Counted from the stretch's first letter, positions 4,627 to 55,624 are shown. The stretch: DNA of 64,000 nt from Rhodocyclaceae bacterium (GCA_023150275.1 JAKLLG010000002.1:12511-76510); one strand, 5' to 3'. Notes: a model not told the origin generated them from the letters alone. Made by a program: numbers and translations.

Positions 4627-5745
4627 TCAGTCCGATAGCGCTGCCTCCACCGCCTGAAAGGCACCGCCCTGTGCCTGTGCCACCGCGGCGCAGGTCACTT
4701 TCCCGGCATGCACATTCAGCCCGGCCCGCAGATGTGGGTCGTCGGTGCAGGCCTGTCGCCAGCCCTTGTTTGCCAGCGCCAGCACGAAGGGCAGGGTGGC
4801 GTTGTTGAGTGCGAAGGTCGAGGTGCGCGGCACGGCGCCGGGCATGTTGGCGACGCAGTAGTGCACGATGCCGTCGACGACGTAAGTCGGGTCGGCATGC
4901 GTCGTCGGCCGCGAGGTTTCGAAACAGCCGCCCTGGTCGATGGCGACATCGACGAGTACGGCGCCCGGTCGCAGTGCGGCGAGATGCGCCCGGCGCACCA
5001 GTTTCGGTGCAGCGGCGCCGGGAACGAGGACGGCTCCGATCACGAGGTCGGCCGTGAGCAGTTGTGATTCGATGGCGTCCTGCGAGGCGGCGAGCGTTTT
5101 CAGGCGTGCGCCGAAGCGTTCCTCCAGCGCGCGCAGGCGCGGAATCGAGCGGTCGATGAGGGTGACGTCGGCGCCGAGGCCGATCGCCATCTGCGCCGCG
5201 TTGCTGCCGACCACGCCGCCGCCGAGGATGAGGACCTTGCCGGGCGGTACGCCGGGCACGCCGCCGAGCAGCACGCCGCGACCGCCGTTGGGCTTCTGCA
5301 GTGCGACGGCGCCGACCTGCACCGCCATGCGACCGGCGACTTCGCTCATCGGTGCGAGCAGCGGCAGCCCGCCGGCGGCATCGGTGATGGTTTCGTAGGC
5401 GATCGCGGTGCAGCCGGAGGCGACGAGGCGCCTTGTCTGCTCCGGATCGGGGGCGAGGTGCAGGTAGGTGAACAGGATCTGGCCGGCGCGCAGCTGCACG
5501 ATTTCCGCTGCCTGCGGTTCCTTGACCTTGACGATCATTTCGGCGGCGGCAAATACCGCTGCGGCAGCGGCAGCGATTTCCGCACCAGCCGCGCGGTAGT
5601 CGTCGTCGCTGCAGCCGATGCCGCTTCCCGCCTGCGTCTCGACGAGTACGCGGTGGCCGTGGTACGCCAGTTCGCGAACGCTGCCCGGTGTCAGGCCGAC
5701 GCGGAACTCGTTGTTCTTGATTTCTTTCGGAACGCCGATCAGCAT
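4627..5745 (-). CDS. ald: alanine dehydrogenase
   Basis: Starts [20 protein letters not shown]. Rossmann motif [14 protein letters not shown] is present. 372 aa. The ATG at 5745 was verified on the minus strand; the longer upstream extension in the ORF track is unlikely. Confidence 0.9.
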
Positions 5746-6314: not shown

Positions 6315-7343
6315 ATGGAACAGCAATTCGCCAGCGACAACTACGCCGGCATCTGCCCGGAGGCGCTTGCGGCGCTGACGGCGGCGAACGCCGGCCATGC
6401 CCCGGCCTACGGCGAGGACGAGTGGACGCGGCGCGTCTCGGATCGCCTGCGCGCGCTGTTCGAGACCGACTGTGACGTCTACTTCGCCTTCAACGGCACG
6501 GCCGCCAATTCGCTGGCGCTGGCCTCGCTGTGCCAGAGCTACCACAGCGTGATCTGCCACGAGCTGGCGCACGTCGATACCGACGAATGCGGCGGCCCGG
6601 AGTTCTTCTCCAACGGTTCCAAGCTGCTGCCGGCCAAAGGCGAGGGCGGCAAGCTGACGCCGGCGGCGGTCGAGGAGGTGATCGCGCGGCGCAGCGACAT
6701 CCACTACCCGAAGTCGCGCGTGGTGACGCTGACGCAGGCGACCGAAGTCGGCACGGTCTATCGGCCGGCGGAGGTCGCCGCCATCGCCGAACTGGCGCAT
6801 GCGCGCGGCCTGCGCGTGCACATGGATGGCGCCCGCTTCGCCAACGCTGTCGCGTCGCTCGATGTCTCGCCGGCCAAGCTGACCTGGCGCGCCGGTGTCG
6901 ACGTGCTCTGCTTCGGCGGTACCAAGATGGGCTTGCCCGCCGGCGAGGCGGTGGTCTTCTTCGACCGTGGGCTCGCGGAGGATTTCGCGTATCGCTGCAA
7001 GCAGGCCGGGCAGCTGGCGTCGAAGATGCGGTTCCTGTCGGCACCCTGGCTGGGGATGCTGGAGGGCGACGTCTGGCTGCGCCACGCGCGCCACGCCAAT
7101 GCGATGGCGCGGCGCTTGGCGGACGGGCTGGCGACGCTCCCCGGCGCGAAGCTGCTCTTTCCGGTCGAGGCCAACGGTGTCTTCGCCGCCTTGCCGGCAG
7201 TGGCGATCGACGGCCTGCGGGCGCGCGGCTGGCGCTTCTACACCTTCATCGGCGCCGGCGGGGCGCGCTTCATGTGCGCCTGGGATACGACGCCGGAACG
7301 CGTCGATGCGCTGCTCGCCGATCTGCGGGAACTCATGTCATGA
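6315..7343 (+). CDS. ltaE: low-specificity L-threonine aldolase
   Basis: Starts MEQQFASDNYAGICPEA. Carries a beta-eliminating lyase/threonine aldolase signature including the PLP-lysine region FGGTKMG. Confidence 0.85.
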   Translation: MEQQFASDNYAGICPEALAALTAANAGHAPAYGEDEWTRRVSDRLRALFETDCDVYFAFNGTAANSLALASLCQSYHSVICHELAHVDTDECGGPEFFSNGSKLLPAKGEGGKLTPAAVEEVIARRSDIHYPKSRVVTLTQATEVGTVYRPAEVAAIAELAHARGLRVHMDGARFANAVASLDVSPAKLTWRAGVDVLCFGGTKMGLPAGEAVVFFDRGLAEDFAYRCKQAGQLASKMRFLSAPWLGMLEGDVWLRHARHANAMARRLADGLATLPGAKLLFPVEANGVFAALPAVAIDGLRARGWRFYTFIGAGGARFMCAWDTTPERVDALLADLRELMS

Positions 7344-26793: not shown

Positions 26794-28188
<1,395 letters not shown>

Positions 28189-28197
28189 GGAGCGAAC

Positions 28198-28518
28198 GTG
28201 TCACAGTTTCAAGCCAACCTGAAAAAGATGCCCGGCATCTCGCACCTCGAAGCGCTGAACCTGCTCGATGCCGACGGTAGCGTCGTCGCGACGATCGAGA
28301 ACAAGGCCGGCAGCCAGGGCTCGCTGTCGCTGTACAACCACCTCGGCCAAACCTACGGTGCGATCACGCCGGACGCCGCGAGGAAAGGCCTCGAACTCTA
28401 CGCCGAGCACACCGAGGATGCGCGCCTGCATCCGGGCAAACACCCGAACATCGACCGGCTGTTCGAAATTGCCGAGAAAAAGACCACGCTGCGCGTAAAG
28501 CACGTCTTCGCGGTTTGA
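28198..28518 (+). CDS. small conserved protein downstream of purB (DUF2322-like assignment tentative)
   Basis: GTG start with GAGGAG 8 nt upstream. 106 aa. Its 5' region is partially duplicated at 40138-40209. Confidence 0.55.
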   Translation: MSQFQANLKKMPGISHLEALNLLDADGSVVATIENKAGSQGSLSLYNHLGQTYGAITPDAARKGLELYAEHTEDARLHPGKHPNIDRLFEIAEKKTTLRVKHVFAV

Positions 28519-28530
28519 TCCACCGAACGC

Positions 28531-28580
28531 AAAGCGCCCCGATCCGGCAACGGATCGGGGCGCTTTGCTTTGCTGTCTTT
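28531..28580 (+). terminator. rho-independent terminator
   Basis: aaagcgccccgatccg-gcaa-cggatcggggcgcttt hairpin followed by a T-rich tract. Confidence 0.7.
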
Positions 28581-28638
28581 CCTGAGCGCGTGTTGGGCGG
28601 TTGCTGTCCAGCGGTTCGGAAAAATCTGCGGCAGCCAT

Positions 28639-28682
28639 CGACATAATATGTCTTGACATATTATGTCGTCTCTCCTATAAAT
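28639..28682 (+). promoter_or_regulatory. sigma70-type promoter (-35 TTGACA, 17-bp spacer, -10 TATAAA) embedded in a perfect 12-bp inverted repeat (putative operator)
   Basis: The inverted repeat is cgacataatatg-tcttga-catattatgtcg. -35 TTGACA lies at 28654-28659 and -10 TATAAA at 28677-28682. ATG at 28731 has a GAGGAG RBS. Confidence 0.6.
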
Positions 28683-28730
28683 ACGGCATCGCGATGTCAT
28701 TGCGATATTGCCCGAGGAGACTTGCCAAGA

Positions 28731-29146
28731 TGAACCATGTGCAAAAACAGATCGAAGGTCTGGATGCGCTCGTCAGCAGCCGTTTGGGCGGCGTGTCGAC
28801 GTCGATGCAGCCGGTGCCTGGTGACATGCCGGTGATCCAGATCGTGGTCGACGGTTACGAGTCGCTGCCCATCTATCTGACTTTTTCAGACGCCCAGTGC
28901 CTGTGTATCTGCTACCTGTGGACGGAAGACGAGGTGGTTGCCGAGCGGCGCGGGGCGCTGATGGAGGCGCTGCTCGATCTCAATATTTCCGTTCCCTTGT
29001 CGTCCTTCGGGCGCATTGGTCGTCACTATGTGTTGTTTGGCGCGCTGGCGCGCGATTCTGCCGTCACTGACATTGCCCAGGACGTGGTGGCATTGCTCGA
29101 CAACGCGGTGGATGCGCTCGACGCGTTTGCCGATTACCTGCGCTGA
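28731..29146 (+). CDS. YjfI-like protein (DUF2170)
   Basis: 139 aa. ...PIYLTFSDAQCLCICYLWTEDEVV... matches the YjfI family by recollection. First gene of the operon. Confidence 0.55.
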
Positions 29147-29170
29147 TACGAACGAACCAAGGAGATCTGT

Positions 29171-29888
29171 CATGAGTTCCGTCTTTACCAAAATGCTTAC
29201 CCTGGTGCGCGGCAGCGCCCGCGAAATCGGCGAAAGCGTCGTCGATGCCAATGCCACGCGCATCTACGAACAGGAAGTGCATGAAGCACGCAATGCCGTA
29301 GCAACCGCCAAGCAGGAACTGACCGTGGTGATGGCCAAGGCCACGCAGACCGCCCGGGAAATCGAGCGCCTGAAGAAGGAAATTACGCGCTACGAGCAGC
29401 TGGCGGTCGAAGCGCTCGGCAAGCAGGAGGAAGCGCTGGCCGAAGAAGTGGCCGGCAAGGTCGGCGAGCTGGAGGCCGAGCTTGACGAGCAGACCAGGGC
29501 GCATGCCGACTTTACGGTGAACGTCGCCAATCTCAAGGATCTGATCCGCAATGCCGAGGCGCGGCTGCGCGAACATGATCGCGAGCTGGCCGTCGCCAGG
29601 ACGACCGAGAGCGTCTATAAGGCGACCATGACCATTTCCGGCGCCGTAGGCGCCAGCGGCTCGAAGCTGATGAGCGCCAAGGAATCGCTTGAGCGCATCA
29701 AACAGCGGCATGCCGATATGGCCGATCGCATGGCGGCCGCCGACGAGCTTGATCAGGAATTCGGCCATCGCGCGCTGGACAAGAAGCTGGCGGCGGCAGG
29801 CATCGGCGATACCAGCGATCGCAAGGCGCAGGCGCTTTCCCGTATTCGCCAGCAGCATGCAGCCAGGGCCGGCAAGGAAGGCACATGA
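29171..29888 (+). CDS. PspA/IM30 (ESCRT-III-like) family protein, YjfJ-like
   Basis: 239 aa and all-helical. MSSVFTKMLTLVRGSAREIGESVVDANATRIYEQEVHEARNAV... is a typical PspA/IM30 N-terminus. RBS AAGGAGA. Confidence 0.8.
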
Positions 29889-30226
29889 CCGAGGGCAAGC
29901 GTCCGCCGCGCTGGCAGAGTTCGGATCGGGCGATCCGTGCCGTGCAGATCGCGTTCGACGTAGAGGCGGCGGTGCTCAATGCCGTTCGCGCCGCCGCCTT
30001 CAACAATGATCTGTCGACCTCGGATCAGCTGCGTCTGGTGCTCGGGCTGGAGGTGATCCGCAAACCCAAGCGACCGCGCCTGACTGTGTCGCTGTCGCCG
30101 GAGGACTATGCGGTTCTTGGCAAGCGCTACGGAGTCGATCCGGAAAATACCCTGGCAATCAAGGAAAAGGCGTTGGCCGACTTGATCGCATTTGCGCAGC
30201 AAAGCACAATGGCCCGCTCAGACTGA
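29885..30226 (+). CDS. putative DNA-binding protein with two ribbon-helix-helix-like segments
   Basis: ATGA-coupled to pspA. RPRLTVSLSPEDYAVLGKRYGVDPENTLAIKEKALADLI looks like CopG/Arc RHH. The N-terminal half has a similar beta-alpha-alpha pattern. Confidence 0.45.
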   Translation: MTEGKRPPRWQSSDRAIRAVQIAFDVEAAVLNAVRAAAFNNDLSTSDQLRLVLGLEVIRKPKRPRLTVSLSPEDYAVLGKRYGVDPENTLAIKEKALADLIAFAQQSTMARSD

Positions 30227-30268
30227 AGTGCCAATCGCATAAAAACAAACCGACTCCGGGGAGGTGTC

Positions 30269-30919
30269 ATGCAGGGCTTGTTCGCTATCGTCACCAGCTG
30301 GCCAACGGCGATCTACACCGTATTGCTTGGTGTCGTCGTTCTCTACTGGGTTCTCGCGCTGGTCGGGCTGGTCGACTTCGAGCACGGCGGCCTGGATCTG
30401 GATGGACACCATGACATAGGGGTTCATGCCGACGGCGATCATCTTTCGACCATCGCCAGCTACGTGGTCGCATTCGGTCTGCACGGCGTGCCCTTCTCGG
30501 TGGTGATCAGCCTGCTGACGCTGATCGCCTGGGTCTGTGCCGGTCTGCTTGCCCAGTACCTGCTGCCGTGGGTGCCAACCCAGACATTGCGTGCGCTGGC
30601 CGGTCTTGGGATGCTGGTTTTCGCCATGGTGCCCGCAATTGTGCTGACCGCCTGGGTGGTCAAACCGATGCGCGGTTTGTTCGTACAGCATGCCGCACGT
30701 TCCAACCGGAGTCTCGTCGGACTCTACTGCCGGGTGACGACGCTCAACGTCAGCGAGCGCTTCGGGCAGGCCGAAGCCAGCGACGGCAACGGCAGCTTCA
30801 ACATCCGTGTTCGTGCCGAGGAGCCCAATGCCCTCACCAAGGGCTCGCGCGCGCTGATTATCGATTACGACGAGAGCAGCCAGCGCTACCGCGTGGAAGC
30901 TGCCGACGAGAACGCTTAA
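30269..30919 (+). CDS. YqiJ/NfeD-like inner-membrane protein (DUF1449, OB-fold C-terminus)
   Basis: An N-terminal TM bundle is followed by a soluble C-terminal domain. Sits directly upstream of the flotillin, as in E. coli yqiJK. RBS GGGGAGG. Confidence 0.6.
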   Translation: MQGLFAIVTSWPTAIYTVLLGVVVLYWVLALVGLVDFEHGGLDLDGHHDIGVHADGDHLSTIASYVVAFGLHGVPFSVVISLLTLIAWVCAGLLAQYLLPWVPTQTLRALAGLGMLVFAMVPAIVLTAWVVKPMRGLFVQHAARSNRSLVGLYCRVTTLNVSERFGQAEASDGNGSFNIRVRAEEPNALTKGSRALIIDYDESSQRYRVEAADENA

Positions 30920-30949
30920 CAAAACGAAAACTTACCGAAAGGGAAAGCA

Positions 30950-33052
30950 ATGGAACTGATCATCACCGCCATCGGCATCTTGGCCCTGTTCATATTCGGC
31001 CTGTTTGCCCTGTTTGCGAAGTTCTACTACAAGGTCGAGCAGGGGCATGCCATGATCGTCAACAACCTGCGGGCCGAACCCGAGGTGACCTTCACCGGCG
31101 GCATGGTTTACCCGATCATCCACAAGATGGAAATGATGGATATCTCCATCAAGACCATCGTCATCAAGCGGACCGGCAACGAGGGTTTGATCTGCAAGGA
31201 CAACATCCGCGCCGACATCGAGGTGACCTTCTTCGTTCACGTGAACAAGACGGCCAGCGACGTGCTCAAGGTGGCGCAGACGATCGGCTGTGCCCGCGCC
31301 TCCTGCCAGGAAACGCTGGAAGAACTGTTCGCCGCCAAGTTTTCCGAAGCGCTGAAGACCGCCGGCAAATCGATGAACTTCGAGGATCTCTATCAGGCTC
31401 GCGATCAGTTTCGCGACGAGATCATCCGCCAGATCGGCGACAACCTCTCCGGCTATGTGCTCGAAGACGCTGCCATCGACTACCTGGAACAGACACCGCT
31501 CGACAAGCTGGATCCCAACAACATTCTCGACGCCCAGGGCATCCGCAAGATCACCGAACTGACTGCCGTCGAGCATATCCAGACCAATCAATGGCAACGC
31601 GACGAACAGGCAAAGATCAAGAAAAAGGACGTTGAAACCCAGGAGACGATCTACGAACTCGAACGCCAGCAGGCCGAGGCGCAGGCCCGACAAGTGCGTG
31701 AGATTGCCGCTGTTCAGGCACGTGAACAGGCGGAGGCGCAGCGTGTGCAGGCAGAGGAAAGGGCCAAGGCCGAGTTGGCCAGGCTCAACGCCGACCAGCT
31801 GATTGCCGTACAACAGGAAAACGTGCAGCGCGAGAAGGAAGTCGCCGAGAACAACCGCAAGCGCGCGGTCGCCATCGAGGAAGAGCGTGTCACCCGCGCC
31901 CGCCAGCTGGAAATCGTCGATCGCGAAAAGGAAGTTACGCTGCAGACCATCGACAAGGACAAGGCCGTCGAAGTGCAGAAGAAGGCCATCGCCGACGTTA
32001 TCCGCGAGCGCGTCATCGTCGAACGCACGGTGGCCGAGCAGGAAGAGGCGATCAAGGAGGTTCGCGTGGTGTCCGAAGCCGACCGCACCCGCAAATCGGC
32101 GGTCATCGAAGCCGAGGGCAAGGCGGAGCACGATCTGGTGCTGGCGGTGAAAGCCGCCGAGGCGGACGAGCGCCGCGCTCGCCATCTGGCCACGCAGGAA
32201 CTGACGCTGGCCGAAGCCAAACTGAAGGTTGCGGAGAAAGAAGCGGAAGCGAAGAAACGCGAAGCCGAGGGAATCGAAGCCTTCACCGCAGCTCCCGGCC
32301 TCGCTCAGGCCAAGGTACAACTGGCGGCTGCCGATGCGACCGAAAAAACCGGCCTGGTCGAAGCCAAGGTCAAGATTGCCGATGCCGAAGCGACGGCCAG
32401 GTTCGGCGCCGCCGAAGCGGAAGCGCTGCGCCTCAAGCTGGAAGCCGAAGCCCAGGGCAAACAGCAACTCGGTCTTGCCGACGTGCATGTGAAGTCGGCC
32501 GACGCCGACGCCGTCAGCAAGCAGGGGCACGCCGAAGCGGAGGCCGTGGAAGCCAGGATGCAGGCCGAGGCGCGTGGCCTCAAGGAGAAATTCGACGCGA
32601 TGCGCGCGATGGCGCCGGAGACCCGGGCGCACGAGGAATACCGCATGCGTTTGCAGAATGCCCACGTCGAAACCCTCAAGGGCATCGAAGCGCAGAAGGA
32701 TATCGCGGCCGAACAGGCGACGGTGCTGTCGACCGCGCTGGGCAACGCCAAGATCGACATCGTCGGTGGCCAGGGCGACTACTTCGAGCGCTTCGTCAAT
32801 GCGCTTGCGGTGGGCAAGGGCATCGATGGCGCGATCGCCAAGAGCGAGACCCTGCAGATTGCACTGAAGGATCATCTGACCGGCGAGCGTGATCTGGTCG
32901 GGGATCTGCAAGGGCTGGTCGGCGCACTGGGTTCTTCTTCCTCCGAGCTGCAACATCTGAGCGTCAGCGCGATGATGGCGAAAGTCATGCAGGAAGGTTC
33001 GGAGGATCAGCGCTCGGCCCTGCAGAACCTGCTCGCTAGCCTGCGCAAGTAA
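30950..33052 (+). CDS. flotillin family protein (SPFH/band-7 domain, YqiK-like), 700 aa
   Basis: N-terminal TM segment and an SPFH domain, then a long Ala/Glu/Lys-rich coiled coil (EAEAQRVQAEERAKAE...). Confidence 0.85.
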   Translation: MELIITAIGILALFIFGLFALFAKFYYKVEQGHAMIVNNLRAEPEVTFTGGMVYPIIHKMEMMDISIKTIVIKRTGNEGLICKDNIRADIEVTFFVHVNKTASDVLKVAQTIGCARASCQETLEELFAAKFSEALKTAGKSMNFEDLYQARDQFRDEIIRQIGDNLSGYVLEDAAIDYLEQTPLDKLDPNNILDAQGIRKITELTAVEHIQTNQWQRDEQAKIKKKDVETQETIYELERQQAEAQARQVREIAAVQAREQAEAQRVQAEERAKAELARLNADQLIAVQQENVQREKEVAENNRKRAVAIEEERVTRARQLEIVDREKEVTLQTIDKDKAVEVQKKAIADVIRERVIVERTVAEQEEAIKEVRVVSEADRTRKSAVIEAEGKAEHDLVLAVKAAEADERRARHLATQELTLAEAKLKVAEKEAEAKKREAEGIEAFTAAPGLAQAKVQLAAADATEKTGLVEAKVKIADAEATARFGAAEAEALRLKLEAEAQGKQQLGLADVHVKSADADAVSKQGHAEAEAVEARMQAEARGLKEKFDAMRAMAPETRAHEEYRMRLQNAHVETLKGIEAQKDIAAEQATVLSTALGNAKIDIVGGQGDYFERFVNALAVGKGIDGAIAKSETLQIALKDHLTGERDLVGDLQGLVGALGSSSSELQHLSVSAMMAKVMQEGSEDQRSALQNLLASLRK

Positions 33053-33631
33053 ATGGCCCGCGAACCCGAACTGCAGTGCTATTGCGGCCCGCGGCAGACG
33101 CTGGCCGTGACGGAGGAGGGCGGTCTGCGCCAGTGGCGCTGCCGGCGCTGCGGCGGCCGACGTTTCCTGCTCGCCGACTTTCGCCGGTGGCGCGAGCAGG
33201 GTGGTGCGCAGCAGCTTGCAGTCGGGTTGCCGGCTGCGGCGACGGAATACCACGAAACCCCATCTTCTCGCCTGTGCCAAAGCTGCGGGCTGATCATGGC
33301 GCGTTACCGGGTGGCCAGCGATCTGGCGTTCCACATTGACCGTTGCGCACCTTGTCAGTCGGTCTGGCTCGATGGCTGCGAGTGGGAAATCCTTGCCAGC
33401 CAGCAGTGGCTGGCACAACTCGACGAGATCATGTCAGATCGCTGGCAGAAACGTCTGCAGCAAAGCGAGGCCGACGCGCGGCGCGAGCAGACCCTGCGCG
33501 TCCGCTTTGGCGATGCCGAGTACGAGCGGTTGCGTGAAATCAGCCGCTGGCTCGCGCAGCAGGCGAAGCGACGGGAAATGCTGGCCTTTCTGAACGCCGA
33601 ACCCTCTGCCGGTGCGGAGCGCCTCCGATGA
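33053..33631 (+). CDS. protein with two zf-TFIIB-type zinc ribbons and a C-terminal coiled coil
   Basis: CYCGP...WRCRRCGGRRFLLADF and CQSCGL...IDRCAPCQSVWLDGCEWEIL both match the CxxC...CxxCxGxWxDxxE pattern. Confidence 0.6.
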   Translation: MAREPELQCYCGPRQTLAVTEEGGLRQWRCRRCGGRRFLLADFRRWREQGGAQQLAVGLPAAATEYHETPSSRLCQSCGLIMARYRVASDLAFHIDRCAPCQSVWLDGCEWEILASQQWLAQLDEIMSDRWQKRLQQSEADARREQTLRVRFGDAEYERLREISRWLAQQAKRREMLAFLNAEPSAGAERLR

Positions 33632-34605
33632 TCGTTCCGCAATACTGGGCCGAAGCCCGCATCCAGGAGCGCCGCGGAAACAGGCAGCTGACCGTGCGCC
33701 GCTTCGGCTGGTCCGAGCATAGCCAGGACGAAGCGCAGGCCAACGCCGAGGCGCGCGTGCGCACCGCGTTCGAGCGTATCGTCTCTGGTGAGAAGCTGCC
33801 CAGACACGAGCCGAAGGTCGCCTACAACGGCGCCGATGGCGTGCCTATCCGCGAAGAAGTACTGGCGCGCCATGGCGATGTCGTGATTACCCGGAATGCC
33901 TACGGCGCGAGTTGCCTCAATACACCGGACGTGCTGTTCGCCGATATCGATTTGCCCGCAACTTCCGCGGCGTCGCGGAAGTTGCTTGTCCATTTTGTCC
34001 TGCCCGGAATGGCGGCAATGGCCGGTTGGCTGACGCATTCGTGGCTTGTCTTTGCGCTGCTCGCCGTGGCGGCAACCGTTTTCGCCGGCACGGTCGCGAA
34101 GCGGCTAGACAGAAATCGCGGGCAACGCATGGAAACCGCCGGGTGTGCGGCCCGCCAGCGTGTCGCAGATTTCGTTGCGGCGCATCCTGACTGGCACGTG
34201 CGGCTCTACCAGACCCCGGCCGGTCTTCGTGCTCTGGTCATGCATCGTACTTTCGATGCCGACGAGCCCGCCGCGCAGGAGTTTTTTCGGGCACTGCACA
34301 GCGATCCGGTCTACGTGCGCATGTGCCGCAACCAGAAATGCTTCCGTGCCCGCGTCAGTCCCAAACCCTGGCGCGTCGGCATGATCCGGCATATCCGGCC
34401 GCGTCCCGGCGTGTGGCCGGTCAGGACCGAGCATCTGGCCCTGCGCCGGGAATGGATTGCCGAGTATGAAAACCGGGCCAGGAGCCACGCTTCCTGCCGC
34501 CTCATTGCAACTCTTGGTTCGCCGACGGTAGACCCCAAGGCGTTCGCCGTACAAACCCTGCATGACGAGTTGAGTCAGGCCGCTTCGTCACTGCCTCTTG
34601 CCTGA
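33628..34605 (+). CDS. hypothetical protein (325 aa, central hydrophobic segment)
   Basis: ATGA-coupled. One or two TM helices (LLVHFVLPGMAAMAGWLTHSWLVFALLAVAATVFAG). No recognisable motif. Confidence 0.5.
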   Translation: MIVPQYWAEARIQERRGNRQLTVRRFGWSEHSQDEAQANAEARVRTAFERIVSGEKLPRHEPKVAYNGADGVPIREEVLARHGDVVITRNAYGASCLNTPDVLFADIDLPATSAASRKLLVHFVLPGMAAMAGWLTHSWLVFALLAVAATVFAGTVAKRLDRNRGQRMETAGCAARQRVADFVAAHPDWHVRLYQTPAGLRALVMHRTFDADEPAAQEFFRALHSDPVYVRMCRNQKCFRARVSPKPWRVGMIRHIRPRPGVWPVRTEHLALRREWIAEYENRARSHASCRLIATLGSPTVDPKAFAVQTLHDELSQAASSLPLA

Positions 34606-34610
34606 ATGCC

Positions 34611-37600
34611 ATGAGCCAAACCGAAAACCCCGATGCCGTAGATGCCGCCGTTGCCGAAGGCGGCAGTTACGAACTGCTGAAAAAGCGCCTGCAGCTGCAG
34701 GGCGATGCGCTGGCCGGAAAGATCAGGCGGCTGAACGAGGATCGTCTGGCCGCGTTCGGCCGTTCCGACCTGCGTCTGCTCAGTCGCTTGCGCGCACGCA
34801 CCGAGAACAACTGTGTGGCGCGCGACATCGTCCGCGTCGGTGATCTGCTGGTCTTCGGCTACAACGTCTTCATGGGGCTGCGTCAGGAGATTCGCGCGGC
34901 CGACGTGTTCAGCCTGTATCGCCTCGGCGAAGGTGCCGGCAGTGAAGAACTGGAGCCGGTTGCGCTGGAAGGCAGTTTTCTCGCCGACCCGCGTTTCACC
35001 CTCGATTTCCGCGAGCTCTACACCTATTACAAGCAGGCCAGCCTGACGCAATTGCGGGTGCATCAGCACAAGCTGCTGGCTGCGTTCCAGATCGGGCCGC
35101 AACTGACCGACCTGCGCGTCTTCCGGTGGTCGATCGAGGCCGATGGCGGCCTCAAGTACATCGACAATCGCGGCGAACGCGACATCGCCCTGCCGGCCGC
35201 GCACGATTTTGAATGGTCGGTGAGCCGGCGCGAAGACCACGTCACCGGCAAGCATCCGCATGTGAATATCCTCGACACCATTTTTGTCGAGACCATCGGC
35301 GGCGATCTCACCGTCAAGATAGAGAACAATACCGAGAGCGGACTCGGCATCTACAGCGAGCCGGTGGAAGACAAGAACCAGTCGCTGGTCGATGCCGAGA
35401 TCTACCACGCCCGCCTGGGTTCGCTGATCCTGCTGCGCATCAAGCCCTACCGCGAAAGCGAATATCGCTACCTGGTCTACAACCACCGTACCCAGCATGT
35501 CGTTCGCATCGATGCCATCGGCCCCTCGTGCGTGCAGTTGCCGGAAGACCACGGCATCATTTTCCCGGGCGGTTACTACCTGCAATCCGGCGAATACAAG
35601 CGCTTCGATCTGCCGGCCGAGGCCATCGCCGGACTGCGCTTCAAGCGCATGCTGCGCTCGCCCAACGGCGAGGATGTGCTCTACGTGTTCTACCAGCCGG
35701 GCGGCGGGCAGTACGGCTTGTTTACCTACAACCTGATCGAAAAACGTCTGGGTACGCCGGTGCTTTCGAATGGCTACGCCCGCTTCGACGACGGCCGCAT
35801 GCTGGTCTTCCAGAGCGACGGCAGCGACCCCGTCCGCCTGCACCCGATGCAGTTGTGGCAAACCCCCTTCGTCAGCGACGACCATGCCGAGCGCCATGTC
35901 GATCGGCAGAGCTTCTTTGGCCGCATCGGCAACGCCGAGCTGGTGCGGGGTATCGCCGAATCGATGGAGATCAGCCGCGCCGTCGGCGAGCAGGCGCCGA
36001 CCCGCGTCGTCTACGAAGATATGCTCCGCCTTTGCGGGCGGGTACTGGACGGCTATTTCTGGCTGGACAGCGACGAGGCCGGCCACGCCGACGCCGATCT
36101 GCGCGCCATCGCCGGCACCGCACGGGCGGCGCTGGACGAGTTCGACAAGGTGGCGGCGATCCGGCGCGAGGCCTCGCGCCTTCTGGCCCAGGCCGAAGGC
36201 GAACAGCACGGCCTGCTGACCGACATCGCCGCCAGGCTCTGGCAACATCCGGACGATTTCGTTGCCATGCTCGACCGCCTGCGCCTGCAGCGCGGCCGCC
36301 TGCTCGGGCTGCGCGAACAGCGCTACATCGACCTTGCCCGAATCGAGGCTCTGGATCAGCAACTCGGCGAGGAGCAGAAGCGGGTCGGCGAAAAGACCCT
36401 TGTCTTCCTGCTCACCGACAAGGCATTCCAGCCCTACCAGGCGGCGCTAGCGGCCTGCGCCACGGCGATCGCCGCCGCCGCCACGACCGGCCAGCTCGAC
36501 GAACAGGGCAAGGGTCTGGAACAGACTGCGCATGCGCTCGACCTGCTCAACGACCTGGTCGCCAACCTGCCCGGCGGCGACGCGACCTCGCGGACCGCCA
36601 TCCTCGAACAGATTTCCGCGGTCTATGCCGAAACCAATCGCCTGCGTGCTGAGGTTCGCAACCGGCGCAAACAACTGGCCACCACCGAACTGGCCTCGGA
36701 ATTCGGCGCCCAGTTCAGGCTGCTCGGGCAGTCGGTGGAAAGCGCGCTGGAGCGCGTCGATACCCCGGAGCAATGCGACGACGCGCTGACCCGGCTGCTC
36801 GCGCAACTGGAAGAACTGGAAGGCCGTTTTGGCGAACAGGAGCAATTCGCCGCCGATCTCGACGAGAAGCGCGAATCGATCTACGAAGCGCTCACTGCGA
36901 AGAAGCAGCAACTGCTGGAAGTCCGTCAGCGCCGTACGCAGATCCTGCTCGATTCCGGTCAGCGCATTCTGGCCGGCGTACCGCGCCGCGTGCAGCAGTT
37001 TACGGTGCTCGACGAAGTCCATGCCTATTTTGCCGGCGACCCTCTGCTCGCCAAATGCCGCAGCATTTGCGACGAACTGCGCGGCATCGGGGCGCAGGTG
37101 CAGGCCGACGATCTCGACACTCGCCTCAAGACCGCCCGCGATCAGGCGCTGCGGGCGGTGCGCGATCGTTCCGAACTGCTCGCCGACGACGGCAACACCA
37201 TCCGCCTCGGCCGTCACGCCTTCACCGTCGGGCGCCAGGCGCTCGAACTGACGCTGGCGCCGAGCGGCGATGGCCTGGCCTACCACCTGACCGGTACCGA
37301 CTACCTGGTGCCCTTCGTGCATGACGAAGCGCAGCGCCTGCAGCCCTATTGGACGATGGCGCTGGTTTCCGAATCGCCGGCCTTCTATCGCGCCGAGTAT
37401 CTGGCCGGGGAAGTGCTGCTGGCGAGCCAGCGCGGCGAAATCGCCGCTTCGTTCGAGGCTCTGCAGGCCTTGTGCCTTGCCGCCGAAGGCGAGCGCGACG
37501 GCTTGCTCGCAGTCGTCCGCGATTTCTCGGCGAGCCGCTATCAGGAGGGCTACCAGAAAGGGGTGCATGACCACGACGCCGCAGCCATTCTCGCCGCACT

Positions 37601-39887
37601 GGTGCCGATGCAGGCGCACGCGGGGCGGCTGGCCTTCAGCCCGCGCGCCCGGGCTCTCGCCGCGCTCTACTGGCTGCAGGGCGTGCCGGCCATCGAGCGG
37701 CCGGGGCTGCAGCGGCAGGCAGCGAGTGCCGGCCAGATCCATGCGTTGTTCGGTGCCGGCCGCGTTCGCGAAGCGCTGGTCGTTCGCTGGCAGCCGGCCA
37801 TTGCCCGCTTTGCCGAGCGGGAGCAATTGCTGGCGCTATGGCAGACGGGTCCGGTGCTGGTCGATGAAGCGGCCGCTTATCTGGCCGAGGAGCTTGCCAG
37901 CGGCGGCGAATGGGTCGCCAGTGGCGCCGCACTGGATCTTGCAGAGGCCTTCACCCGCCATCTCGAACGGGCAAATCACCTGGGACGCTGGCGCGAGCAA
38001 TTGGCCGACTGTGTGCCGCTGGAATGCTGGCAACTGGCCCGCGACTGGGTCGAGAGCTACTGCGCCGCAGCTGCGCCGGAGGCAGCGGCGTGGAGCGACG
38101 AAGCAGCCGCCACCCTGGTGCTGGAATTGCCGCGGCAACGCCACAACGCCGGCTTGAGCGTGACGGTCGGCGGGTTGCGCGGCGAACACCCGCGCGTCGT
38201 CAATGGAGAACTGGCGCTCAATCTCAACGATTTCCATCTGCGGGCGCGTACCCACCGGCAGGAGATCGTTCCCGGGGTTCTGCGCTGGCACGCCTTGCGC
38301 CAGGAACTGGTGGCGAGCGAAAAGGCGCGCCTGAGCCTTGAACAGTTCCAGGCCAAACCGCTCTCCAGTTTCGTGCGCAATCACCTGATCGATGAGGTCT
38401 ATCTGCCGCTGGTCGGCGACAACCTCGCCAAGCAGATCGGTGCCGCCGGCGACAGCAAGCGCACCGACCGCATGGGCATGCTGCTGCTGATTTCGCCGCC
38501 GGGCTATGGCAAGACGACGTTGATGGAATACATCGCCGACCGTCTGGGCCTGATATTCGTGCGCATCAACTGCCCGGCGCTGGGCCACGACGTCGTCTCG
38601 CTCGACCCCGACAAGGCGCCGCACAGCGGCGCCCGGCAGGAACTGGAGAAGCTGAACCTCGGCCTGGCGATGGGCAACAACGTCATGCTGTACCTCGACG
38701 ATATCCAGCACACTCACCCGGAGTTCCTGCAGAAGTTCATCGCGCTGTGCGACGGAACCCGCCGCATCGAGGGCGTCTGGCAGGGGCGGCCTCGCAGCTA
38801 CGATCTGCGCGGCAAGCGCTTTGCGGTGGTGATGGCCGGCAATCCGTATACCGAATCGGGCGAGGCTTTCAGGATTCCCGACATGCTTGCCAACCGCGCC
38901 GACATCTACAACCTCGGCGACGTACTCTCCGGCCGCGAAGCGGCCTTCGCGCTTTCCTACATCGAGAACAGCCTGACCGCCAACCCGGCGCTGATGCCGC
39001 TGGCGACGCGCGATCCCAAGGATATCGACCGTCTGGTCAAGCTGGCACAGGGGCACGACATCCCGGCCAGCGAGTTTGCACACGGCTACAGCGCGGCCGA
39101 ACTGAGCGAGCTGACCGCCATCCTGCAACGCCTGTTCACCGTTCGCGACGTGCTGCTCAAGGTCAACCTCGCCTACATCCAGTCCGCCGCGCAAGAAGAC
39201 GACTACCGTACCGAACCGCCGTTCAAGCTGCAGGGCAGCTATCGCAACATGGCCAAGCTCGCGGCCAAGGTCACCGCGATCATGGATCCGCAGGAGCTGG
39301 ACAACCTGCTGCGCGACCACTACCGCGGCGAAGCGCAGACCCTGACCACCGGCGCCGAGGAGAATCTGCTCAAGCTGGCGATGCTGATCGGCACGCCGAC
39401 GGCCGATGAAACGCGGCGTTGGCAGGCGATCTGCGAGGACTACCGCCGCTTCAAGAAACTCGGCGGCGCCGAGAGCGACGGCGCCACGCGGGTCGCCAAC
39501 CTGCTCGCCGACATCGGGGTGACTCTGGATGGGCTGAGGCAGCAACTTGCGAGTCCTGTACCGGGAACTCCCGATTGGCCTGCGGAGCTAGGGTCGCTAC
39601 GCAACACCATTGCTGCGATCAAACCCCAGGTGACAGTCGATGTCGCCGAGTCGCCGGCAATCGCCGCCATCGTTGACCGCCTGGCAGAGACCTACGAAAA
39701 GGGGATTGCGCCGCTGGTCAATGCGACCTATCACAAACTCAAGCTCGATCATGACATGTGGGAACGTCTGCGCGACATGGCGAAGGACATCAAGCGCCTG
39801 GACGCAGCGCTTGAACAAGCCGATTCACCAAAACCCGCGCCCAAGCCGCGCAAAACCGGAGGCAGCCATGAGCAAGGAAAGTCGTGA
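34611..39887 (+). CDS. 1758-aa multidomain protein with C-terminal AAA+ (AAA_5/MoxR/McrB-like) ATPase domain
   Basis: Walker A LLISPPGYGKTTL (nt ~38490-38520). Walker B NVMLYLDDIQH. Sensor/arginine region VVMAGNPYTESGEAFRIPDMLANRADIY. Precedes these with a beta-rich N-terminal domain and an ~800-aa helical region. Confidence 0.8.
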   Translation: MSQTENPDAVDAAVAEGGSYELLKKRLQLQGDALAGKIRRLNEDRLAAFGRSDLRLLSRLRARTENNCVARDIVRVGDLLVFGYNVFMGLRQEIRAADVFSLYRLGEGAGSEELEPVALEGSFLADPRFTLDFRELYTYYKQASLTQLRVHQHKLLAAFQIGPQLTDLRVFRWSIEADGGLKYIDNRGERDIALPAAHDFEWSVSRREDHVTGKHPHVNILDTIFVETIGGDLTVKIENNTESGLGIYSEPVEDKNQSLVDAEIYHARLGSLILLRIKPYRESEYRYLVYNHRTQHVVRIDAIGPSCVQLPEDHGIIFPGGYYLQSGEYKRFDLPAEAIAGLRFKRMLRSPNGEDVLYVFYQPGGGQYGLFTYNLIEKRLGTPVLSNGYARFDDGRMLVFQSDGSDPVRLHPMQLWQTPFVSDDHAERHVDRQSFFGRIGNAELVRGIAESMEISRAVGEQAPTRVVYEDMLRLCGRVLDGYFWLDSDEAGHADADLRAIAGTARAALDEFDKVAAIRREASRLLAQAEGEQHGLLTDIAARLWQHPDDFVAMLDRLRLQRGRLLGLREQRYIDLARIEALDQQLGEEQKRVGEKTLVFLLTDKAFQPYQAALAACATAIAAAATTGQLDEQGKGLEQTAHALDLLNDLVANLPGGDATSRTAILEQISAVYAETNRLRAEVRNRRKQLATTELASEFGAQFRLLGQSVESALERVDTPEQCDDALTRLLAQLEELEGRFGEQEQFAADLDEKRESIYEALTAKKQQLLEVRQRRTQILLDSGQRILAGVPRRVQQFTVLDEVHAYFAGDPLLAKCRSICDELRGIGAQVQADDLDTRLKTARDQALRAVRDRSELLADDGNTIRLGRHAFTVGRQALELTLAPSGDGLAYHLTGTDYLVPFVHDEAQRLQPYWTMALVSESPAFYRAEYLAGEVLLASQRGEIAASFEALQALCLAAEGERDGLLAVVRDFSASRYQEGYQKGVHDHDAAAILAALVPMQAHAGRLAFSPRARALAALYWLQGVPAIERPGLQRQAASAGQIHALFGAGRVREALVVRWQPAIARFAEREQLLALWQTGPVLVDEAAAYLAEELASGGEWVASGAALDLAEAFTRHLERANHLGRWREQLADCVPLECWQLARDWVESYCAAAAPEAAAWSDEAAATLVLELPRQRHNAGLSVTVGGLRGEHPRVVNGELALNLNDFHLRARTHRQEIVPGVLRWHALRQELVASEKARLSLEQFQAKPLSSFVRNHLIDEVYLPLVGDNLAKQIGAAGDSKRTDRMGMLLLISPPGYGKTTLMEYIADRLGLIFVRINCPALGHDVVSLDPDKAPHSGARQELEKLNLGLAMGNNVMLYLDDIQHTHPEFLQKFIALCDGTRRIEGVWQGRPRSYDLRGKRFAVVMAGNPYTESGEAFRIPDMLANRADIYNLGDVLSGREAAFALSYIENSLTANPALMPLATRDPKDIDRLVKLAQGHDIPASEFAHGYSAAELSELTAILQRLFTVRDVLLKVNLAYIQSAAQEDDYRTEPPFKLQGSYRNMAKLAAKVTAIMDPQELDNLLRDHYRGEAQTLTTGAEENLLKLAMLIGTPTADETRRWQAICEDYRRFKKLGGAESDGATRVANLLADIGVTLDGLRQQLASPVPGTPDWPAELGSLRNTIAAIKPQVTVDVAESPAIAAIVDRLAETYEKGIAPLVNATYHKLKLDHDMWERLRDMAKDIKRLDAALEQADSPKPAPKPRKTGGSHEQGKS

Positions 39888-55560: not shown

Positions 55561-55592
55561 TCGGCTGAGTTCTGTAGCGTTACTGCAGGGCA

Positions 55593-55624
55593 AAACCGGG
55601 GGCTTCGGCCCCCGGTTTTTTTCT
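55593..55624 (+). terminator. rho-independent terminator after nirS
   Basis: aaaccgggggc-ttcg-gcccccggtttttttct. Confidence 0.8.

Follow-up and report, generated by a model that had tools for sequence, protein, structure and literature searches.

What controls a near-consensus sigma-70 promoter that overlaps a perfect palindrome at the head of a PspA/flotillin operon? The question is raised by a 64,000-nt stretch of a Rhodocyclaceae bacterium (GCA_023150275.1 JAKLLG010000002.1:12511-76510), hereafter the window, in which a 44-nt feature at 28639-28682 has a G+C content of 32% compared with 63.5% for the window as a whole. An initial annotation had read this feature as a repressor operator lying on the -35 element, and had named a ribbon-helix-helix (RHH) protein of 113 amino acids, encoded in the downstream operon, as the candidate binder. 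Comparison of orthologous loci indicates that positions 28639-28668 form a deeply conserved operator, in which the unit that a protein would recognize is a 13-bp box. We consider it probable that the RHH protein of the same operon binds the boxes, occludes the -35 hexamer and represses its own operon.

The promoter and its two palindromic boxes

The promoter consists of the -35 hexamer TTGACA (28653-28658, + strand), which matches the consensus at six of six positions, and the -10 hexamer TATAAA (28676-28681, + strand), which matches at five of six. The two are separated by a spacer of 17 bp, within the 16-18 bp that characterize sigma-70 promoters. This 11/12 match is near consensus, as the initial annotation had recognized, and it is unique: no other site in the window, on either strand, matches TTGACA-N16-18-TATAAT at 11 or more of the 12 positions, where 0.06 would be expected in first-order Markov (Markov-1) random sequence. 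A rule-based promoter scan of the window did not list it because the rule demands T at position 6 of the -10 hexamer, which TATAAA fails to provide. Judging from the position of the -10 hexamer, transcription would start in the region 28685-28689 (+ strand), giving a 5' untranslated region of approximately 42 nt. A Shine-Dalgarno sequence, GAGGAG (28714-28719, + strand), lies 10 nt before the ATG at 28730.

Overlapping the -35 hexamer is an inverted repeat, CGACATAATATGTC / GACATATTATGTCG, whose arms were placed by a repeat finder at 28639-28652 and 28655-28668. Each arm is 14 nt long, the two are 100% complementary, and they flank a TT centre; a Markov-1 random window would be expected to contain 0.01 perfect inverted repeats whose arms reach 14 nt or more and whose gap does not exceed 8 nt. 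The same span is also a direct repeat of a 13-bp unit, GACATAATATGTC (28640-28652) and GACATATTATGTC (28655-28667), with a distance of 15 bp from start to start, and each unit is itself palindromic, with the form GACAT-N3-ATGTC. Because each 13-nt unit is its own palindrome, the complete 30-bp perfect palindrome (28639-28668) resolves into two adjacent palindromic boxes, which together constitute the putative double operator. The distal box covers approximately positions -52 to -40 relative to the predicted transcription start, and the proximal box takes in the final 4 nt of the -35 hexamer and extends 9 nt into the spacer. Within a box the centres of the two half-sites are 8 bp apart, and between the boxes they are 7 bp apart. 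The perfect repeat of the initial annotation is therefore real, with arms of 14 nt and a centre of 2 nt in place of the 12 and 6 given there. The -35 hexamer is not centred in the palindrome as had been proposed, but starts with the 2-nt centre and runs 4 nt into the right-hand box.

Searching the window for GACAT-N3-ATGTC with up to three mismatches returned only the two known copies, and so no further regulon member is visible in these 64 kb.

The box in orthologous and metagenomic promoters

Homologues of the 113-aa protein were collected, 24 of them were aligned, and the alignment was used to retrieve 80 loci from contigs representing one genome per species. The loci span Rhodocyclales, Burkholderiales and Neisseriales, and include one Lysobacterales genome. 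As they were picked through the RHH protein and not through DNA, their upstream DNA is an unbiased sample of the promoter. Gene order is kept across the 80 loci. At least one box with no more than one mismatch was found in 76 of the 78 usable upstream regions: 38 promoters contain one box, 34 contain a pair at a distance of 15 bp, two a pair at 24 bp and one a pair at 31 bp, and one promoter contains three boxes. The box present throughout is always the one fused to the -35 hexamer (TTGACAT-N3-ATGTC), and a TAnAnT -10 hexamer starts 8 nt after it, which preserves the 17-bp spacer. In one locus, L053, the second box lies downstream of the -10 hexamer. The two box-less regions are L057, which has an assembly gap, and L010, for which 209 nt of upstream sequence are available.

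Exact copies of the box are confined to this promoter. The 887 kb of flanking DNA contain 96 of them, against 0.3 expected from base composition, and all 96 are located within 200 nt upstream of the start of a DUF2170 gene. An exact box is present in 72 of 77 protein-selected loci, which is the unbiased figure. We also compiled a position profile of 139 distinct promoters, in which the box columns are inflated by how the sites were picked. The two T positions ahead of the box are preserved in 99% and 96% of these promoters, and the -10 hexamer retains T1 in 80%, A2 in 83% and T6 in 86%; a 17-bp spacer is found in 122 of 145 promoters. Both hexamers and their spacing are thus conserved features of a sigma-70 promoter over this set. 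The N3 and the flanks are near random, and neither flank nor spacer positions are conserved. Double operators mostly have AAW (where W is A or T) as the N3 of the distal box and WTT as that of the proximal box, so that the whole 28 bp share a common dyad about the central TT, a symmetry that goes further than either box alone would demand. In the single-box promoters of Variovorax and others, the N3 is mostly GTT.

The box was also approached from the DNA side. A pattern-only scan of metagenome contigs for the double box, GACATNNNATGTCNNGACATNNNATGTC, matched 107 stretches, of which 70 are positioned directly upstream of a DUF2170 gene, always in the orientation of the gene and with the TT centre pointing toward it. 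A good many of the 70 come from a divergent clade of lower G+C content in which the DUF2170 proteins are 35-48% and the RHH proteins 40-50% identical to those of the window. The operon of this clade runs DUF2170, PspA, a 231-aa protein, RHH and then a potassium (K+) channel. It has the DUF2170-PspA dyad in common with the second operon group of Ravi et al. (PMC11237479); as the 231-aa protein has no Pfam match, equivalence to that group is not established. Two contigs with this arrangement, L083 (8883-12284) and L190, place the RHH gene between the 231-aa protein and a K+ channel with Ion_trans_2 and RCK domains. Three further matches (L101, L127 and L176) are upstream of a membrane-protein/flotillin pair. 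L101, a low-GC contig, has the cluster split into two units, DUF2170-PspA-RHH, with boxes 18 bp apart, and the membrane-protein/flotillin pair, and each unit has its own double box (4682-4712 and 7095-7122).

Four of the 107 matches are double boxes with W spacers in other contexts: L105:7130-7157, L173:4772-4799, L104:1842-1900 (three boxes) and L109:7938-7965, all with perfect W spacers. The genes at these sites encode two RDD-family membrane proteins, a YgaP-like transmembrane protein, and a small Cys/Trp-rich open reading frame with a lipoprotein after it; the regulon may extend to these genes. Three matches were too near a contig end to be judged. The remaining matches, approximately 27, were rejected as operators, having non-W spacers and occurring in microsatellite-like or other repeat contexts on low-GC contigs. 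Six of the contigs, L081, L115, L133 and L139 (GACATGTAATGTCGTGACATACGATGTC) together with L135 and L185, carry a separate repeat family that fits the double-box pattern by chance. The flanks of this family are themselves conserved (..ataaaaatctatcgt / ataagggtgtaaatcc..), the contigs have 23-36% G+C, and the family is unrelated to the operator. A double-box scan of viral contigs gave no match, and hence no sign of phage origin.

By these counts (76 of 78 regions, 96 exact copies against 0.3, and 70 of 107 scan matches) the box is conserved beyond the core promoter elements and is specific to this promoter, and it recurs in approximately 150 beta- and gammaproteobacterial genome and metagenome sequences. 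The reading as an operator made in the initial annotation is strongly supported by the -35-fused box in the orthologous promoters and in the divergent clade, by the lack of conservation at flank and spacer positions, and by the recurrence of the whole 13-mer farther upstream in half of the promoters. What has to be revised is the unit of recognition, which appears to be the 13-bp box; about half of the orthologues have one box only.

The candidate repressor and competing explanations

The RHH gene is the third gene of the operon, 1.2 kb downstream of the operator-bearing promoter, and it is present in every box-bearing operon with enough sequence to look. Among the pattern-found metagenome loci it is encoded on the same strand in all 31 that have at least 2.5 kb of downstream sequence. 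Besides the RHH protein, no protein with a predicted DNA-binding fold was detected in all of the box-bearing operons that could be checked. The yjfIJKLMC operon of Escherichia coli K-12 contains the DUF2170-PspA dyad and no RHH gene; there is no box upstream of it, and the surrounding 20 kb contain no site with one mismatch or fewer. The yjfIJ loci of Citrobacter and Enterobacter likewise have no RHH gene and no box with up to one mismatch. In the loci compared, operator and RHH gene come and go together, with both present in two beta-/gammaproteobacterial architectures and both absent from the yjfIJ controls. In Enterobacter, a K+ channel occurs in the same operon class, which there lacks the RHH gene. 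Searching DUF2170 homologues for RHH-less relatives gave top 120 matches that were all close orthologues, and tblastn of DUF2170 against plasmids gave no match.

The 113-aa protein is probably, though not certainly, a single-chain tandem RHH protein with two beta-alpha-alpha repeats. This assignment follows an AlphaFold2 (AF2) model built from 118 sequences, which is of moderate confidence (mean predicted local distance difference test score, pLDDT, of 82) and has a helix at residues 8-18, a strand at 20-22, helices at 28-40 and 45-52, a strand at 68-70, and helices at 72-82 and 89-112. Among 124 distinct sequences, with identities down to 40%, hardly any change is seen in the two ribbon segments (AVQVAF and KRPRLT) or in the helix-B N-cap (S-x-S-D). 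This near-invariance has its counterpart in the invariance of the GACAT/ATGTC half-sites. The N-terminal helix (residues 8-18, 29906-29938), which precedes the first predicted repeat, contains an invariant R9-W10 and is preceded by a near-invariant P7; it could be a partner-binding or oligomerization element. A profile search of Protein Data Bank (PDB) sequences with the RHH alignment returned nothing at E-values up to 10. With its predicted tandem-RHH fold, its gene in every testable box-bearing operon, and the absence of both gene and box from the enterobacterial operons, the protein named in the initial annotation gains indirect support as the candidate binder.

Several observations weigh against this protein as the binder. 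The window protein has no Pfam or NCBIfam match, curated RHH families included. The FitA-like_RHH family was matched at residues 25-53 in four of the 24 homologues, all below threshold (E-values up to 10), the best score being 24.9 bits where the cut-off is 27. A first AF2 model, built on 24 sequences, contained helices only, and Foldseek found no significant match to it in the PDB; the predicted structure from 118 sequences supersedes this model. L010 has the RHH gene and no box in its available 209 nt. The RHH-less controls are a small set of three genera from one family, a narrow range that arises because the E. coli YjfI search returned only Enterobacteriaceae. The four W-spacer double boxes in other contexts are on contigs without an RHH gene within 4-14 kb. 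Finally, RHH, DUF2170 and PspA are always together in box-bearing operons, and their co-occurrence cannot separate the three.

The last two of these points, and the moderate confidence of the fold prediction, would also fit a different binder, namely an unlinked regulator that recognizes the boxes in place of the RHH protein. We regard this as unlikely. Every box in the 887 kb of flanking DNA sits at a DUF2170 promoter, 73 of the approximately 80 metagenomic W-spacer double boxes are found at units of this system, and the box vanishes along with the RHH gene in the enterobacterial yjfIJ operons. The RHH ribbon residues match the half-sites in their invariance, and a half-site spacing of 8 bp is unusually close for a helix-turn-helix dimer.

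If the RHH protein is the binder, its target would be the 13-bp palindromic box GACAT-N3-ATGTC, which occupies -35 positions 3-6 and continues for 9 nt into the spacer. A second box 15 bp upstream, present here and in about half of the orthologues, would lie over the region used by the C-terminal domain of the RNA polymerase alpha subunit (alpha-CTD) and by UP elements. Since the conserved 5-bp halves flank a non-conserved, W-rich N3, one recognition module per half-site is more plausible than a single ribbon at the centre of the box. One RHH chain would accordingly form one two-stranded beta-ribbon that contacts one 5-bp half-site; two chains would fill a box, with half-site centres 8 bp apart and a packing like that of MetJ, and four would fill the double operator. 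The bound protein would deny access to sigma region 4 and, where it sits on the distal box, to alpha-CTD as well. The operon, from DUF2170/YjfI to the AAA+ ATPase, would in this way be held down by its own product and strongly expressed once the repressor is released. The sequences themselves show the features, how well these are conserved, that they are specific to this promoter, that they co-occur with the RHH gene, and the predicted fold; we infer the binding by the RHH protein, the stoichiometry, the sign of regulation and the transcription start.

The same protein could bind the boxes and activate, or both repress and activate. Activation is known for some RHH proteins, among them AmrZ and TraY, and in some orthologues the second box is placed elsewhere, 24 or 31 bp away or, in L053, downstream of the -10 hexamer. 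The box shared by all promoters, on the other hand, overlaps the -35 hexamer, which is the standard position for steric repression. No activator would be needed, because the promoter matches at 11/12 with an optimal 17-bp spacer and its -35 and -10 hexamers are conserved. Activation is for these reasons very unlikely. It is hardly credible that the boxes have no dedicated binder and serve as an UP-like or other intrinsic promoter element, as a cruciform in the DNA or as a hairpin in the RNA, as the AT-richness of the stretch and its perfect palindrome might suggest. Conservation concerns the bases (GACAT/ATGTC invariant, N3 free) and not pairing with compensatory changes, the 38 single-box promoters among the 78 have no long hairpin, the ATGTC half is in the spacer, where we know of no sigma-70 promoter element, and the palindrome precedes the predicted start and follows a strong terminator. 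An Rfam search of 28100-29100 gave sub-threshold matches only, none of them on the palindrome, and the reading as an RNA element was rejected accordingly.

Membrane stress, acting through PspA or the CesT-like DUF2170 protein, may be what releases the putative repressor, though this is speculative. A more far-reaching proposal, which we put forward tentatively and consider rather unlikely as a whole, is that the tandem RHH protein and GACAT-N3-ATGTC constitute a new self-contained control circuit for YjfI/YjfJ (bac-type) PspA systems of beta- and gammaproteobacteria, with a repressor freed by partner switching and a small envelope regulon. Under membrane stress the RHH protein would be captured or released by PspA or DUF2170, perhaps through the R9-W10 helix. 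Such a circuit, if it exists, would be an RHH/sigma-70 counterpart of PspA-PspF and PspA-ClgR, and its regulon would in some organisms add a separate membrane-protein/flotillin unit, RDD-family proteins and YgaP-like proteins.

Relation to known regulators and the surrounding genes

The closest parallel for the proposed arrangement is CopG (RepA) of plasmid pMV158, a 45-aa RHH homodimer that acts at the Pcr promoter of its copy-control operon. Both cases have an RHH protein, here a predicted one, encoded in the operon that it controls or would control, a 13-bp (pseudo)symmetric element over the -35 hexamer, and RHH units that lie, or here would lie, side by side. The present protein differs in being a predicted 113-aa single chain with two RHH repeats, in belonging to a chromosomal PspA/flotillin operon, and in having a box of unrelated sequence. 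TraY of the F plasmid and AvtR of an archaeal lipothrixvirus resemble the 113-aa protein in its predicted fold only, two RHH repeats per polypeptide forming one beta-ribbon; they have no detectable sequence similarity to the 113-aa protein, function as a relaxosome/oriT accessory protein and a viral regulator, and bind other DNA sites. Arc and Mnt of phage P22 and MetJ of E. coli are RHH repressors with operators over core promoter elements. Unlike the predicted single chain they are homodimers, and MetJ needs S-adenosylmethionine as a co-repressor, whereas no ligand is known or predicted here. MetJ binds arrays of adjacent 8-bp boxes, which is near the 8-7-8 bp spacing of the four half-sites of the present operator and tighter than is typical of helix-turn-helix dimers. 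The device would be an ordinary one, an RHH autorepressor on a core promoter in the manner of CopG, Arc and Mnt, but is unusually well conserved and is found on an uncharacterized envelope-stress system. To the RHH class, known mostly from plasmids, phages and toxin-antitoxin modules, it would add a predicted chromosomal single-chain tandem regulator with an unusually invariant site.

Operons of the pspA family with a dedicated regulator include those controlled by PspF with sigma-54 in E. coli, LiaFSR in Bacillus and ClgR in Mycobacterium; the regulator predicted here is instead a tandem RHH protein acting on a sigma-70 promoter. Like the candidate regulator here, that of the ClgR system is encoded within the pspA operon (PMC10948618, PMC11237479). 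The bacABCDEF operon of Pseudomonas aeruginosa is of a homologous class, with DUF2170 first, then PspA, and with flotillin and an AAA+ ATPase (PMC11237479, PMC10948618). For that operon, sequence analysis alone led to the proposal of a sigma-54 site, and BacA was suggested to be a negative factor; unlike here, neither an RHH gene nor an operator is described (PMC10948618). Ravi et al. mention an RHH gene only as the last gene of their second operon group and report no operator (PMC11237479). In the searchable literature we found neither this operator nor the box sequence described, and no mention of this RHH family as the binder; a full-text search with five box variants retrieved nothing beyond unrelated eukaryotic primers.

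YjfI/YjfJ (bac-type) PspA-flotillin operons occur widely and have been associated in P. aeruginosa with biofilm formation and virulence (PMC10948618) and in E. coli with heat tolerance (PMC12492005). A defined operator with a candidate cognate repressor offers an experimental handle on them, as an inducer reporter or a genetic derepression switch, and the regulon of any genome that bears the RHH gene could be mapped by searching for the box as a defined motif.

In the window, the operon is a tight run of eight genes at 28730-39887, all on the + strand. Gene 1 (28730-29146) encodes a protein of the DUF2170/YjfI family (CesT/Tir-like; Pfam PF09938, 3.5e-27), with a sub-threshold match to the NCBIfam BacA model, and is a relative of the P. 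aeruginosa BacA family (PMC10948618, PMC11237479). Gene 2 (29172-29888) encodes a PspA/IM30 family protein of the YjfJ type (Pfam PF04012, 1e-32), and gene 3 (29885-30226) encodes the 113-aa predicted single-chain tandem RHH protein, the candidate repressor. The overlap of the pspA stop with the RHH start (ATGA, 29885-29888) points to translational coupling of the two genes in this genome; at other loci they lie 10-100 nt apart, and the overlap is not conserved. Gene 4 (30269-30919) encodes a 216-aa predicted membrane protein without a Pfam match that is conserved in orthologous loci, and is assigned to the YqiJ/YuaF-type slot of the operon class by position and conservation only. The 700-aa product of gene 5 (30950-33052) is an SPFH/Band-7 flotillin-like protein (Pfam PF01145) with 63-80% identity in orthologous loci.

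Gene 6 (33053-33631) encodes a 192-aa protein with a weak zinc-ribbon match. It was considered as a general binder of the boxes and rejected, because it is not universal: tblastn recovered it from no more than about 50 of the 80 genome loci. The 325-aa product of gene 7 (33628-34605) has no family match in Pfam or NCBIfam, and the 1758-aa product of gene 8 (34611-39887), with DUF3686, DUF7902 and AAA+ ATPase domains, is probably the AAA+ protein of the CesT/Tir-PspA operon class. This class, "CesT/Tir-PspA + band-7/flotillin + YqiJ + AAA+", is known from comparative genomics (PMC11237479), and as defined by Ravi et al. (2024) it accommodates the present operon through the Pfam families DUF2170, PspA_IM30, Band_7, DUF3686 and AAA, the membrane protein being placed by position only.

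Upstream of the promoter are purB (26812-28188) and a DUF2322 gene (28198-28518), a unit closed by an intrinsic terminator hairpin (28529-28568, + strand) with an 18-bp stem and a T-rich tail. With these two genes and the strong hairpin upstream, the promoter stands alone, and the predicted terminator isolates it from read-through. All of the sub-threshold Rfam matches are at this hairpin. One of them, to the sbcD RNA (28425-28571; 25.8 bits against a gathering score of 40), extends over the end of the DUF2322 gene and the terminator, and is probably just the hairpin.

Two other perfect inverted repeats, each with 12-nt arms, were noted in the window. The first, GCAACTTCCGCG gcgt CGCGGAAGTTGC at 33958-33985, is inside the 325-aa open reading frame of gene 7. 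The second, at 55592-55619, has TTTT directly after it and is terminator-like.
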